Positions 1-42,559 of a stretch of 64,000 nucleotides of DNA are shown here, one piece after another. This DNA comes from Escherichia phage FV3. The stretch is from sequence record NC_019517.1. One strand, 5' to 3'. The notes below the pieces were generated by a model. The model was given only the letters and a program-made list of their open reading frames with translations. It was not told the DNA's origin and ran no database searches. Made by a program: the position numbers and the translations under genes. Numbering within the stretch: position 1 is the stretch's first letter; every line of letters begins with the position of its first letter.

Positions 1-396
1 GGGAGATTTAGGAGCCTTCTTGTCCGTTTCCACACATAAACTTTAACCAAACTCGCGCGGGAGTCTCTCAACCGACTCCTTACGGCGCTGGCAAGCTTTC
101 GTCGGTGGTCCACATTAGTGCTCGGCCTTTGGCCTGCGCTATCGCTTCGCTCCCACACATGTTAACAGTCCTGCATGTATGCACTCCTGTTATTGTGTGC
201 ACTATGGAGGCCCGGCATCTCGCCCCTCGTAGGCGAGTGCCAATGAGGGGCCGACACTACCCATAATAAGTAATAAATTTAAAACATGGTACTTAGGATC
301 TAGTATATTCTACATAAGTTAAGTATATGTACTTTAGTACCATAAGTACTAGATCTTTTATTTTTATTATTTAGTTATTTTAGTTATATTCTTTAT

Positions 397-482
397 GTGT
401 CCGTATTGCGGACAGTTAGTGTCCGTATTACGGGCAGATGTGCCCGCGTGACGGACAGTAGTGTCCGTATCACGGACAGTTA
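397..482. repeat. three tandem copies of an imperfect palindrome GTCCGTAT-N-ACGGAC; middle copy carries a nested CGGGCA/TGCCCG palindrome (coordinates approximate)
   Basis: read directly from the sequence; lies in non-coding DNA 3' of the minus-strand operon. Confidence 0.6.
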
Positions 483-553
483 CTATCCTCTGCTCTTGGG
501 TGGACATAAAACATACGAATCCTTATAGTACAGATATTTAAGTTTTTACTGGT

Positions 554-904: not shown

Positions 905-951
905 ATCTCCTGATTCTCCTTGTGTGGCAATTTTCTTTAAAATAGCAGGGA

Positions 952-1506
952 TTACTCCCCGCTGTCAATAGCAAGACTCATTGCAATACGGTATGCCTCT
1001 TCTAATGGTAAGAGTCTCCCCCACACATCCCAACCGACATCAAACTGCCTGCCAAACAACTGCTGTGTGGTTCCGTGAGCATGACCGAACAGTTGGACTG
1101 ATCCGTGAGGCTTTCTGTTCCACTTTGCAAACTGGTAATGGCTCATACAGATCAAATTCTTGTTGTGGCGAAGCTCGTAATAATCTACAACCTCATGACC
1201 GAACTCTTTCATAATTCTGACAGTCGTCCTTGTGTCATGGTTACCACGAACAAGAATAATATGTCCGTTCAACATATTTAGAACATCTGGGAGCAATTTG
1301 TTGATATTCTTATCCTTAGTGCATGCAATATCGCCCAAGTGAAACACAGTGTCTTCCGGTGACACAACAGAGTTCCACTCGGCGATGATTCCTGCATTCA
1401 TACTGTCAAGATTGCGATCATACTGAGATCTGTGTTTTTGACATGAATCAAACTCCATGACTCGCTGGTGGAGAAAGTGTGTATCGCTTGTTACAAAATA
1501 TTTCAT
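952..1506 (-). CDS. calcineurin-like metallophosphoesterase (Ser/Thr or polynucleotide 3'-phosphatase)
   Basis: motifs DTHF, GDI, GNHD, GHAHG typical of the calcineurin/lambda-phosphatase superfamily. Confidence 0.8.
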   Translation of the reverse strand: MKYFVTSDTHFLHQRVMEFDSCQKHRSQYDRNLDSMNAGIIAEWNSVVSPEDTVFHLGDIACTKDKNINKLLPDVLNMLNGHIILVRGNHDTRTTVRIMKEFGHEVVDYYELRHNKNLICMSHYQFAKWNRKPHGSVQLFGHAHGTTQQLFGRQFDVGWDVWGRLLPLEEAYRIAMSLAIDSGE

Positions 1507-32698: not shown

Positions 32699-32983
32699 AT
32701 GAAACTGTTCGAGTGGTTTAAAAAGTTTAAATACCGGGCCGTTGCTGTATCGAAATGGACTGTCCGCTGGGTGGACAATGATGGAACACAAATTCCAGGT
32801 GATCAGGATACCGGATACTGGGTTATGATGGAGAACGGATTTGGGAAAAGGAAGTTTAAATGTGTTGGTGCTCCTACCCTTTTAAATGTTAGAAGTGTGC
32901 CAGGGTACAGCACTCTGGTTGTTTGGGAGCTATCCGGTGTTCCTCCTGCCAATGTGCAATACTTGCCAAATTCAGAAAAATAA
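32699..32983 (+). CDS. hypothetical protein (94 aa)
   Basis: track ORF. Confidence 0.4.
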   Translation: MKLFEWFKKFKYRAVAVSKWTVRWVDNDGTQIPGDQDTGYWVMMENGFGKRKFKCVGAPTLLNVRSVPGYSTLVVWELSGVPPANVQYLPNSEK

Positions 32984-39136: not shown

Positions 39137-39444
39137 GGTGGATTATGTCTACAACGACAGCTAAATACTCCTATATGCCAGCAACCTCCGCAGAAATAGA
39201 CTTCAGTTTCGATGTGTTTCCATTGTTTGAGATAGTCCTGGCATACCCAACAACTATATCTACTCCTGAATCACTTGTGCCTATTAAGTTGCAGAACGCT
39301 ATGCATTCCATGCACTACAACAATAAATGCAGGCACAGATGGTGTCAGGACGAGGAAAAAGATCTAGATAGTTTGAAAGATTTTGACAATCACCTTTTGA
39401 CCCCTTTCAGCTACTCTAACCTGGACAAGCCCTCATGGGTATAG
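39133..39444 (+). CDS. hypothetical protein (103 aa)
   Basis: track ORF. Confidence 0.4.
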   Translation: MRWIMSTTTAKYSYMPATSAEIDFSFDVFPLFEIVLAYPTTISTPESLVPIKLQNAMHSMHYNNKCRHRWCQDEEKDLDSLKDFDNHLLTPFSYSNLDKPSWV

Positions 39445-39468
39445 CAAAATATCAAATTTAAGGCACCT

Positions 39469-39497
39469 AGGACGCTCTGTGGCGTCCTTTTCTTTAT
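39469..39497 (+). terminator. rho-independent terminator
   Basis: AGGACGC-TCTGT-GGCGTCC followed by TTTTCTTT. Confidence 0.65.
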
Positions 39498-39657
39498 CTG
39501 GTGCACGATTGCATACCTTGGGTAGTTAATCTCATTACAGAGCGTTTAATAGCGGCCTGTAAACAGATCTCTATTTCGAGCGTAGCGAGAACGCACGTCC
39601 GTTTTGACCCAAATCACCATACGCTCGGATTTTAACCAAACCCTCGCGGCGTTTCTG

Positions 39658-39686
39658 TTGACACATTACCGCTCCTGTGATAGTAT
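39658..39686 (+). promoter_or_regulatory. sigma70-like promoter TTGACA-N17-TAGTAT
   Basis: consensus hexamers. Confidence 0.5.
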
Positions 39687-39706
39687 CCTCACATAGTTTG
39701 TAGAAT

Positions 39707-39808
39707 ATGAAATACGCAATGAAAACATTATCTGAGGTTTTAGTGGTGATCCTGATGATCATTACGTCCATAGCAGTTGTTGCCGGAATACTCACGGGTG
39801 GAACATGA
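39707..39808 (+). CDS. hydrophobic micro-protein (33 aa)
   Basis: MKYAMKTLSEVLVVILMIITSIAVVAGILTGGT; ATGA overlap with next ORF. Confidence 0.35.
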   Translation: MKYAMKTLSEVLVVILMIITSIAVVAGILTGGT

Positions 39809-39993
39809 CCAACACACATGCACCTAAAGAGACATCTGAAGAAGCGACTATAGAGAAAAACTTCAATTCTGAGGATTCTTTATCTCCGTCTCAGGTAGAT
39901 CCTGAGGCTGATGACCTGACGTGGGAAGACATCGTAGACATCTGGTTCTCTATCATGCCTGAGCACGAAGAGTTCAGAGGTGGGAGACTATGA
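39805..39993 (+). CDS. hypothetical acidic protein (62 aa)
   Basis: track ORF. Confidence 0.4.
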   Translation: MTNTHAPKETSEEATIEKNFNSEDSLSPSQVDPEADDLTWEDIVDIWFSIMPEHEEFRGGRL

Positions 39994-40112
39994 AGCACCG
40001 AGCCCACATAAGTTTATCATGCTAAAGCATGGCCTGAAGAGGCAAACGTGCATAATTCCAGTGCATTGGAACGTATAACCCTGTTCACACTCTCATTTCC
40101 AGAGGAGATTTT

Positions 40113-40328
40113 ATGAAGATAGAAATATTTGGTGGAGCTGACAACACTCGTGGCCTGATTTACCTTGAATTCGATGAATCATACCTGCCAGAGGTGTTAA
40201 ATATAGACTCTGTTGCTGAGGCTTTGGGAGTAAACCCTAAAGAACTCCACTCTTGTGCTGAGATCGATGGTTGGGAAGAGACCATGAACATTGATTTCAG
40301 TGAAGTAGAGGATGAACCGCTGGACTGA
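40113..40328 (+). CDS. small acidic protein, paralog family A-like
   Basis: MKIEIFGG...acidic C-terminus. Confidence 0.45.
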   Translation: MKIEIFGGADNTRGLIYLEFDESYLPEVLNIDSVAEALGVNPKELHSCAEIDGWEETMNIDFSEVEDEPLD

Positions 40329-40508
40329 CACACAATTAGCTGCCCGGCTAAAGTGCTGGAAGCACCTATAACACATCTTTCAACTAAATTTCCTACCACC
40401 ACAATCACTTACCTCCCACACATGACTGTTTGCTTGTTTAGTGAGCAGTCATTCCTTGACATTCTTGCCTATCCTGATAAAATTAAGTTCTTCTCTTTTC
40501 TTTTACCG

Positions 40509-40535
40509 AGTAATTCGGGTTTTCTGTTCTCTTCG
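40509..40535 (+). terminator. possible terminator closing the plus-strand block
   Basis: hairpin CCGAGTAATTCGG followed by T-rich tract (approximate). Confidence 0.35.
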
Positions 40536-42559
40536 GTTTGAAGGGGTATGGAGATACACCTGAGTGAACAGGGTGAACAACCGAACCTTTAGCTATGGCA
40601 TTAGCATGGCGAAGCGGACGGGTGACGAAAGAGGGGCCGGAGGACACCAGTCACTGCCATATGGTATATGGGTGATAACCTGAAGAGTCTGAATAAGTGT
40701 TTAAGTACCAGTCAGAGGAAAAGGTGAATGGTAGCCGAAGGGGGAGGGGGGTTTCTTGTATCTTTAATTTGTATACTTTATATACACTTGTAAACCAATT
40801 CAATTAGAATATGGATACCACACAAAGTGGATAGAGGCAAATATTCCCTATTAAACTTGAATTATTTATAGAAAATACCACAACACTGCTTAAGTCTTTG
40901 ATTTTACACACAAATATTACAAATATCCTGCCTCTATATTTAACATACCTGTAACATATTCCATACTCTCCCTGATTGATCAATTCCCCAACTACATCCC
41001 CATATTTTCCCTTCCTGTACTACCCCTGCCCCGCCGGGAGTCCCGTCATATCTGGCTTTCCAGCAAATATCACACCCACAAATATCATTGCCTGAAGAGG
41101 GTTTCATCCCATAATACCTGCCTTACCCGAAGAGCGCTTCATACACCACGTAAATTTTTTAATTGACCTGCAATTTTCCTGCAGACCCACCCCCTGCCCA
41201 GCCGGAGAGGTTGGCTTTTCCCACACAGGCCTGAAGAGTCAGCCAGAAATATCTGAAGGGGGTCCAGTTCTACCACGATTTTGACCTGACCTACAGGAGC
41301 GCTGCCAGGCGGACGAAATGGGAATACTTCTCATTCTTATAACAATTCTCAAATATCGGGGCAGTGAGGCAAATTAATAGGCGAGGCCGTTCACACAGTG
41401 GCACAACATTTGCAAGCTATTTTGCGGGGGTGAATGAGAATACCTATCATTGTGAGAATAGTTATCATTACGGGCAATTTAACATAATACCCATTATGCG
41501 CACCACTGGCGATACATACAGGGATTGATAACATGGGTTACTGTTTACGCATATAACAATTGTATTTCTTATTATTTGTGGGGGATATAGTTAGCAACCA
41601 ATAGATTAGTTATTAACCTGCGGACTTCTGACCGTCTAGACGTCCAAACGCCCACACCACAAGGATTATACATACACTCCTGCATGTAAACAGGGCCGCA
41701 AAAATGCTACCATACCAGTTTGTAAATTTTCCATGCAGCACTTGACAAAGAGGAGAAAAACTTGTCTGACACACTGGACACCTTATACACCTTATACACT
41801 TTCGATACAATAACGATTGTTATTATTTCATGTTTCACTGTTCACGTATAGATTGTTCCTGCATAGACTGTTTACGCCTGGATAGTTTACACCTTGACAG
41901 TTTACGCAGATATGATAAGCCATGACATTCGTTTGCATAGTTGCCTTATTGTTACAGGTAAAACAATTACATTGTTAACTATTTCTTATCTTTCTCTTAG
42001 TCATCTAATGATTCCAGTCAGTATAGTTATGTACAGTAAACATTAGACGACTAAATATTTCTCTGATTATAGTAACCTATCGTGACAATTTCTAACTGTT
42101 TACGAAAAATGTTGACACCTGGGCAGGTTTATGTTATGCAGTTTGTACGAATAATTATTTTGTACAGGTATTGACTATTCCGTTATTCTGTGGTTGGAAT
42201 AAATACTTTGCAGGCTATAGAATGGTGATCGTACGTGGATTCTGAGATCTGTCGGCTATAGTTACACCCGATTTTTCACGTAGGACACGCTTTTTGGTTT
42301 GTGTAAGTGTATGACTTATAAGGGTTTTTAATTGTTGACAGTATACTGAAGATGTGCATCAGGTTAAATTTTGTGCAATAGCTGCATTACGTGCAATTTT
42401 GGGAGAGAAAACGGGTAAAAATAGCACCGCTACCACACAATGAAAGGTTATGCAATAGCTATTTTACATGTATATTTGTACAGTGTGCGGGATTGATGGC
42501 TCGTCAATTATTCCACTTGTCAGGTAGGGCCGTTTATGGTAGGAAAAGAGCAGACAAAA
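40536..42559. other. gene-free repeat-rich region between convergent blocks; candidate origin, regulatory or ncRNA locus
   Basis: no credible ORF over 2 kb; motif CTGTTTACG in at least 5 copies (41540-42100), CCTGAAGAG x3, GAGAAYRNTTATCATT x2. Confidence 0.5.

Follow-up and report, generated by a model that had tools for sequence, protein, structure and literature searches.

A tandem array of phased dyads beside an AT-rich tract: a candidate replication origin of rV5-like phages and its putative binding protein

Within a 64,000-nt stretch of the genome of Escherichia phage FV3 (NC_019517.1; the whole stretch is hereafter called the window), we characterized a tandem array of four palindromic units at positions 397-480, which is flanked on one side by an AT-rich tract and on the other by the 3′ end of a minus-strand gene encoding a protein of 116 amino acids (aa). 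We lean toward reading the array and the tract as an iteron-type (theta) replication origin of the rV5-like phages, with the 116-aa protein as the putative origin-binding protein. This reading is favoured by the combination of unique, phased dyads, the most meltable tract of the genome, a neighbouring gene for an initiator-type domain, and the recurrence of this module in other phages. That the array is the binding site of the adjacent protein we consider more probable than the origin function itself. The genome paper on rV5 had attempted a skew analysis, from which an origin could not be defined (PMC3606486), and our literature search found no paper that links the array, the AT-rich tract, and the gene, nor one that describes Vequintavirinae with iterons.

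The array and the AT-rich tract

The elements on which the argument rests are the following.

397-480, no strand: array of four tandem 21-22-bp units (candidate iterons), from the repeat search and a dyad scan
398-414, no strand: dyad 1, TGTCCGTATTGCGGACA, perfect (0 mismatches)
420-436, no strand: dyad 2, TGTCCGTATTACGGGCA, 1 mismatch (CGGGCA)
441-457, no strand: dyad 3, TGCCCGCGTGACGGACA, 1 mismatch (TGCCCG)
462-478, no strand: dyad 4, TGTCCGTATCACGGACA, perfect (0 mismatches)
262-396, no strand: AT-rich tract, candidate DNA-unwinding element, 19% GC, the stability minimum of the genome
554-904, minus strand: gene for the 116-aa DUF6945/RepA_N-like winged-helix protein (rV5 gp075), candidate iteron-binding protein, from phmmer, profile, Foldseek, Pfam, and PHROG comparisons

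An initial annotation of this DNA had described three repeat copies at 397-482. Its coordinates held up, but the repeat search of the window yielded four units, starting at 395, 417, 438, and 459 (spacing 22, 21, and 21 bp), and what had been described as a middle copy with a nested palindrome turned out to be units 2 and 3 taken as one long palindrome. Each unit contains one 17-bp dyad, TGTCCG-N5-CGGACA, and the junctions between units likewise form 6-N(4-5)-6 dyads. The array can thus be described as eight hexameric half-sites of alternating orientation, with start-to-start distances of 11, 11, 11, 10, 11, 10, and 11 bp, i.e., one half-site per helical turn. Such a layout, with at least three tandem repeats of ~17-22 bp in helical phase, is characteristic of iteron origins. 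The array is located in an intergenic region of ~660 bp, bounded on the right by the minus-strand gene 554-904 and on the left, beyond the window edge, by the minus-strand gene rV5 gp073; it hence lies 3′ of gene 554-904, at the end of the minus-strand genes as initially placed. Two deposited records, naam and ime, carry it only as a repeat_region, with no explanation. In rV5, the counterpart of window positions 260-480, which span tract and array, is found at ~65.0-65.2 kb.

The dyad is close to unique. When allowing at most two mismatches, we found five matches in 64 kb, four of which fall inside 81 bp while the fifth is located at 32761; shuffled sequences gave an expectation of 1.35 per whole 64-kb window. 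A search of the full genome for the same dyad, as the initial annotation had proposed, returned nothing outside the array at one mismatch or fewer in the complete rV5 genome (137,947 bp), and a dyad search of 5,426 complete E. coli genomes gave no match either. The two-unit pattern TGTCCG-N5-CGGACA-N4/5-TGTCCG-N5-CGG occurred in 47 contigs upon scanning 596 Gb of bacterial genomes in a species-level collection. These contigs belong to unrelated, mostly GC-rich taxa, none of them enterobacterial, and the matches probably represent palindromic repeats without relation to the array. Several of the contigs come from metagenome-assembled genomes of Kofleriaceae or Myxococcales, some with overlapping matches on both strands. 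Since the array is absent from the E. coli and enterobacterial genomes, no satellite that shares these iterons was seen.

The AT-rich tract, which had been noted from the start, has a GC content of 19% compared to ~44% for the genome. It constitutes the least stable 100 bp and 130 bp of both the window and the whole rV5 genome, with a nearest-neighbour free energy per 100 bp of -101.7 kcal/mol, versus -110.9 kcal/mol for the next best tract. An AT-rich candidate unwinding element directly adjacent to the repeats, a further hallmark of iteron origins, is accordingly present in the window and in rV5, and likewise in Klebsiella phage KpS8 (see below).

Both elements are strongly conserved. The first 3 kb of the window matched 118 phage records at 90-98% identity, all of them rV5-like myoviruses (Vequintavirus), with Escherichia phage HMD-6 as the best match (97.6%). 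In an alignment of eight Vequintavirus genomes, the repeats, which the initial annotation had looked to related genomes for, were almost unchanged: array and AT-rich tract are nearly invariant, and the adjoining 23 bp (481-503) vary. Because this flanking spacer varies while the array and the tract stay fixed, the sequence appears to be under constraint and not merely young. Variation within the units was confined to the 5-nt centres and to single transitions, with no compensatory changes, and the deviating hexamer of dyad 3 reads TGTCCG in the seven other aligned genomes. O157 typing phage 14 (KP869112.1; L004 894-1018) carries six units, by a 42-bp duplication of units 2-3; its record annotates a 47-aa coding sequence across the repeats (ECTP14_02280).

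Two peculiarities of deposited records came up alongside. Eighteen "Campylobacter phage" records in the series MG065644-MG065682, with Campylobacter jejuni as the stated host, are 91-96% identical in this region to rV5-like phages of E. coli, and their host labels look doubtful. Upon searching a plasmid collection with the 116-aa protein, the only match was a phage genome deposited as a plasmid: CP057073.1 (137,565 bp; E. coli from cattle faeces), listed in PLSDB as a non-mobilizable plasmid, is apparently a complete rV5-like genome. One protein match and the length of the record suggest either a carrier state or contamination.

The 116-residue protein and the recurrence of its module

The protein encoded at 554-904 is a homologue of PDB 4RO3, the dimeric N-terminal domain by which RepA of the Vibrio cholerae satellite PLE binds iterons, in line with the earlier suggestion that the sites suit a dimeric DNA-binding protein. 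A phmmer comparison with 4RO3 gave an E value of 1.5e-6, and the family profile gave 1.5e-15. Conversely, when the 4RO3 fragment was searched against phages (tblastn, E 2e-4), the best matches after ICP1 Odn were the Vequintavirus proteins, with 34.5% identity over 96% of the query. On the Pfam family DUF6945, the 4RO3 fragment scored 80.4 bits and Odn 120 bits, from which it follows that DUF6945 is the domain shared by the PLE RepA N terminus and Odn; the homologues in KpS8 (28.7 bits), the Erwinia phage pEp_SNUABM_01 (32.2 bits), and phiPMW (42.6 bits) passed as well. PHROG 12838, which includes the protein, is labelled "replication initiation protein," and RefSeq gives rV5 gp075 the same name.

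Replication of PLE requires RepA. In electrophoretic mobility shift assays, this protein shifts the semi-palindromic iterons of the PLE origin, and it was placed in the RepA_N family by its authors on structure only (PMC7145576). Its N-terminal domain co-varies with the origin iterons, and the ICP1 nuclease Odn finds those iterons by the same domain (PMC8263062). The equivalent domain of pSK41 Rep from staphylococcal plasmids binds four Rep boxes and bends the DNA, while in the working initiator of pPR9 the origin-binding domain is PF13730 (HTH_36) (PMC5703833).

Structure prediction pointed in the same direction. An AlphaFold2 model built from a 15-sequence alignment reached a moderate predicted local-distance difference test score (pLDDT) of 72.7; a single-sequence model with a pLDDT of 39 was set aside. 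Foldseek searches with the former placed chains of 4RO3, 4PQL, and 4PT7 on top and 5KBJ seventh, with 4PTA also matched and a TM score of ~0.6 at rank 1. The PDB molecule names of 4RO3, 4PQL, 4PT7, and 5KBJ all denote N-terminal domains of RepA or Rep initiators. The monomer model thus suggests a winged-helix N-terminal fold of the dimeric type known from DnaD or RepA.

Close relatives of the protein are restricted to Vequintavirus. A word-indexed protein search returned near-identical proteins only, an exhaustive search returned ten proteins with few informative distant relatives, and IMG/VR, searched with the protein, contained no relative. One distant relative, P0013, is the same domain joined to a GIY-YIG nuclease. 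Longer relatives of 182-217 aa have tails, and those of the metagenomic homologues P0011 (194 aa) and P0012 (217 aa) are acidic, ending in ...EDCDEAPF and ...GDEDPDAPF. We take these to resemble the acidic, Phe-terminal tails by which E. coli SSB and T7 gp2.5 dock replication proteins, so that they could be a recruitment element that the 116-aa protein lacks.

A further indication that the 116-aa product is the binder of the array, as the initial annotation had supposed, comes from other phages, where homologues adjoin their own, different tandem dyads. The synteny via the phosphoesterase gene is not conserved in other genera, and these homologues were reached only through the distant relative P0012. 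They occur in four further settings: Klebsiella phage KpS8 (Mydovirus) together with Cronobacter phage EspYZU08 (Seunavirus), Erwinia phage pEp_SNUABM_01 (Henunavirus), Pseudomonas phage phiPMW, and two metagenomic phages. KpS8, EspYZU08, and pEp_SNUABM_01, all Vequintavirinae, have two units with TGCTCA-N3-TGAGCA, 23 bp apart; phiPMW has three units with GGACA-AAA-TGTCC; and in the two metagenomic phages, the units contain AGGTACA and are spaced by 22 bp. In all these cases, units spaced by 22-23 bp adjoin the homologous gene and an AT-rich tract, while the unit sequence is specific to the lineage. The units of the sister genera are direct repeats in which the dyad is only partial.

The resemblance extends to the tract. 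The KpS8 genome (143.8 kb), too, has its least stable 100 and 130 bp in the tract next to the units (-101.6 versus -106.7). The unit occurs nowhere else in this genome, and the cumulative GC skew has a local minimum there. Between the window and pEp_SNUABM_01, a T-rich tract and a GATC motif align, with identical orientation to the dyads. For phiPMW, its authors placed a skew-based origin at ~40 kb (PMC5587285), and the units are located at 41.84 kb. The gene orientation differs between lineages: In the sister genera, the gene reads away from the dyads, which puts the units in its 5′ leader, whereas the flipped gene of Vequintavirus reads towards them and so has the units at its 3′ end. That the site was retained and even doubled despite this flip argues for a function other than autoregulation.

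Further repeats were seen in these regions. In KpS8 and EspYZU08 (L009 1696-1718 and L010 1659-1680), the opposite side of this intergenic region has a rightward promoter whose -35 element, TTGACA, is overlapped by another dyad of different sequence (ATGTCAAGTG(G)TTGACAT), likely an operator for another regulator. In phiPMW (L014 2415-2460), a purine-rich run of GATAGA repeats, GAGATAGACAGATAGAGATAGAAAATATAAGATAGAG, directly follows the three units, as a second repeat class in the candidate origin region.

Elements flanking the array

Several other features surround the array and the gene.

352-364, plus strand: 13-mer GATCTTTTATTTT, a perfect match to the E. coli oriC 13-mer consensus GATCTnTTnTTTT
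316-336, minus strand: left arm of a 21-bp inverted repeat, TAAAGTACATATACTTAACTT, from the repeat search
524-544, plus strand: right arm of the inverted repeat, TATAGTACAGATATTTAAGTT, from the arm search
481-503, no strand: hypervariable spacer, about half of its columns varying among the eight genomes
501-529, plus strand: putative sigma-70-like site TGGACA-17-TATAGT, 10/12 matches, antisense and aimed into the 3′ end of the gene
939-968, minus strand: early sigma-70 promoter TTGACA-18-TATTTT with TG, upstream of the gene, annotated as rV5 P76 in NC_011041

The 13-mer is the sole perfect match to the consensus on both strands of the 64 kb; that consensus is reportedly the one of Bramhill and Kornberg (1988), and we treat the match as a lead only. 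The arms of the inverted repeat have just these two matches in the window, where 0.04 were expected, and pair at 17/21 positions; together they enclose half of the AT-rich tract, the array, and the spacer. Both arms contain an outward-facing, -10-like TAWAGT. In the eight-genome alignment, the -10 element of the site at 501-529 is conserved, and its -35 element only partly so. Early transcription starting at the 939-968 promoter would proceed through the array and the AT-rich tract.

On the other side of the tract, positions 1-260 of the window and ~110 bp upstream (L001 3890-4260) form a conserved, GC-rich (52-62%), non-coding region of ~370 bp that extends from the AT-rich tract to the next gene. 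Its alignment columns are on average 92% identical; an indel of 18 bp occurs in rV5 and Murica, and an imperfect 13-bp hairpin is located at 222-251. The rV5 annotation puts a doubtful 56-aa open reading frame (ORF; gp074) there, and Rfam gave no match to this region. No tRNA genes were found in the 64-kb window.

An origin weighed against other roles

If the array and the tract do form an origin, its operation could be pictured as follows. The winged helices of the protein dimers would read both hexamers of a dyad, which lie in successive major grooves at a centre-to-centre distance of 11 bp. Four dimers, lined up on one face of the helix with a period of 21-22 bp, would bend the DNA as RepA_N domains do, and the resulting strain would open the adjacent 135-bp tract, the least stable DNA of the genome. 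The phage's own T7-gp4-like primase-helicase and T7-like polymerase could then load at the opened tract, while early transcription from the upstream promoter would traverse the site and may help the opening.

A number of observations weigh against an origin. The protein itself stays just below the Pfam cut-offs, with 26.9 bits (E 5.5e-6) for DUF6945 (PF22182; cut-off 28 bits) and 24.6 bits for HTH_36 (PF13730; cut-off 25 bits), and it did not match RepA_N (PF06970) at an E value of 0.1 or better. It comprises the DNA-binding domain only, ending ~15 residues past the wing, without the C-terminal recruitment domain of the characterized RepA_N initiators. In KpS8, EspYZU08, and the Erwinia phage, the units are located between the AT-rich tract and the ribosome-binding site of the gene, which is a classic autorepressor position. 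The cross-genus alignment of the AT-rich tracts falls in low-complexity sequence. The lowest point of the cumulative GC skew of rV5 (counted from position 1 of a circularly permuted record) is at 66.5 kb, only 1.3 kb from the array, but it coincides with the main divergence of transcription; since the skew of rV5 follows the direction of transcription (PMC3606486), this minimum is not independent evidence. Together with the 13-mer match and the transcription across the site, it is weakly consistent with an origin. Lastly, rV5 contains a second origin-like region, 2.6 kb without ORFs, with repeats spaced by 30 bp and the next least stable tracts.

This ORF-free stretch, at ~39260-41870 of the window (rV5 104013-106618), holds no annotated genes and is located at a convergent switch of transcription. 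The motif ACWGTTYACG occurs there in five copies, at 41540, 41837, 41867, 41897, and 42096, three of which are exactly 30 bp apart, and the third to sixth least stable tracts of the window are in or just beside the stretch (~40750-40850 and 41945-41975). In ICP1, an ORF-free region is the site of pac and of rolling-circle replication, and the stretch in rV5 may similarly be a second origin or a pac region.

A purely transcriptional role of the array, which we consider rather unlikely, would make the protein a repressor, an activator, or a roadblock that acts on early-operon read-through into downstream genes and tRNAs or on the site at 501-529, with no part in replication. The autorepressor position in the three sister-genus phages and the lack of a recruitment domain both suit this role, as do the sigma-70-like site that begins 22 bp past dyad 4, the many weaker winged-helix matches that are repressors (CodY, SlyA, MarR), and a scan that shows no terminator between the early operon and the downstream genes. 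In the window, however, the array overlaps neither a promoter nor a 5′ leader: It lies 3′ of the gene whose promoter is at 939-968, and the scan found no sigma-70 site in the AT-rich tract. The dyad is found nowhere else in the rV5 genome and therefore defines no regulon, and the best matches in both sequence and fold are initiator domains, not repressors. Moreover, a promoter does not need a genome-wide stability minimum, which we observed in two genera. Initiators commonly autoregulate via their own iterons, and the leader position in the sister genera hence fits both readings. Sites of known E. coli regulators such as LexA and CRP presumably do not fit the dyad. Origin iterons account better for the anatomy than the label "operator" of the initial annotation, which is poorly supported, given that the array is unique, sits 3′ of the gene and not over its promoter, abuts the most meltable tract, and belongs with a protein family whose characterized member is a replication initiator. 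A transcriptional role beside an origin function may nevertheless exist, in view of the sites in the gene's own 5′ leader in the sister genera and the promoter-like site 22 bp beyond the array.

The remaining alternatives appear far less probable. The array could be the site of something else (pac or another protein), or a relic with the true origin elsewhere, e.g., in the 2.6-kb ORF-free region, which has its own repeats and AT-rich tracts; we regard this as improbable. The circular permutation of rV5 (PMC3606486) implies that its DNA is packaged by the headful mechanism from a pac site, the gene for the large terminase is ~4.4 kb away, the record MG065672 is linearised precisely at the right edge of the array, and ICP1 has two origins, one of them in its ORF-free pac region. 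Yet, the adjacent protein resembles initiator domains and not small terminases in Foldseek, the record boundary carries little weight because assemblies often break at tandem repeats, and the strong conservation speaks against a relic; a second origin or a pac region would in any case be compatible with the array as the theta origin, as in ICP1. More improbable still is a role of the array as RNA, in which the early minus-strand transcript would carry four hairpins in its 3′ untranslated region for termination, attenuation, processing, or stabilisation. The array folds strongly on both strands (-51.7 and -44.0 kcal/mol, z ~-8) and is located just past the stop codon of the last gene in a three-gene early cluster, but any palindrome would fold strongly. 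On neither strand does a U-run follow a hairpin, and for this reason an intrinsic terminator was rejected; the terminator scan was empty at 397-480, where the flanks are A-rich on the minus and mixed on the plus strand. The hexamers are fixed at the nucleotide level, with substitutions that are single transitions or fall in the spacers and never compensate each other, the exact spacing of one half-site per turn would be meaningless for RNA, Rfam gave only a chance-level match, and the units of the sister genera are direct repeats whose dyad is only partial. Hardly credible, finally, is a small repetitive peptide encoded by the repeats: A 46-aa minus-strand and a 43-aa plus-strand ORF cross the array, and one record annotates a coding sequence (ECTP14_02280), but the open frame measures 38, 51, or 52 aa depending on the genome, with shifting stop positions, and the residues after the sole Met are hypervariable with non-conservative changes, which makes a peptide unlikely; most records call no gene at the array.

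The candidate origin can be set beside several known systems. It is closest to the PLE origin and its RepA, which share with it a homologous DNA-binding domain (DUF6945, the top fold match), tandem semi-palindromic repeats in non-coding DNA, and a joint change of domain and repeats between lineages. The two differ in that PLE RepA continues into a C-terminal domain, presumed to recruit the replisome, whereas the phage protein is the N-terminal domain alone; that PLE has three iterons of ~30 bp, compared to four 21-22-bp units with near-perfect 6-5-6 dyads; and that PLE is a satellite on the replisome of ICP1, while the phage is a virulent myovirus with its own replisome. ICP1 Odn and related homing endonucleases have the DUF6945 DNA-binding domain in common with the phage protein, which lacks a nuclease domain and has its candidate sites in its own genome.

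In anatomy, the array also resembles the lambda origin, where four iterons with dyad symmetry, each of two 6-nt arms around a 5-nt spacer and spaced by 20-24 bp, are directly followed by an AT-rich region, where O binds as a dimer through a winged helix (as proposed here for the phage protein), and where transcription runs through the origin. The lambda origin, however, is inside the O gene, while the phage array lies beyond the 3′ end of the gene, and the AT-rich tract of the phage is three times longer. Lambda O has a C-terminal domain that recruits P-DnaB, and we detected no sequence similarity between it and the phage protein (BLASTP E 2.2; no Pfam Phage_rep_O match). Replicons of the RepA_N type in Firmicutes (pSK41, pTZ2162; PMC5703833) have a similar dimeric winged-helix N-terminal fold (4PQL, 4PT7, 5KBJ), but with the origin inside the rep gene, a linker and a DnaG-binding C-terminal domain, and Gram-positive hosts, and the phage protein shows no Pfam RepA_N match. 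E. coli oriC and the AT regions of iteron plasmids likewise have an AT-rich tract beside the initiator sites, and the phage tract contains GATC sites and one perfect GATCTnTTnTTTT 13-mer. Unlike oriC with its three 13-mers in tandem, the phage has a perfect one and a weak one; a dependence on DnaA is not implied. Set against the known iteron systems, the unusual trait of the phage module is an initiator candidate without a recruitment domain.

More tentatively than the origin itself, we raise the possibility that a stand-alone, N-terminal-only RepA_N-like (DUF6945) protein is a complete minimal initiator for large virulent phages of Gram-negative hosts with a T7-like replisome, binding phased dyads and opening an extreme AT-rich tract with no recruitment domain, and that this family is the source of the origin-recognition module of PLE RepA and ICP1 Odn. 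Phages of the rV5 type are commonly isolated and find use in cocktails against E. coli, in biocontrol and therapy, and their origin has so far been undefined; our analysis supplies a concrete candidate for the cis site and the trans factor. Phage DUF6945 would thereby gain a function, and the homology to PLE RepA gives the RefSeq label of gp075 a basis, while the initiator of the PLE satellite becomes tied to a protein family of several lytic phage lineages. A defined origin would be useful for phage engineering, for copy-number studies, and for interpreting defence or satellite systems that target phage replication.

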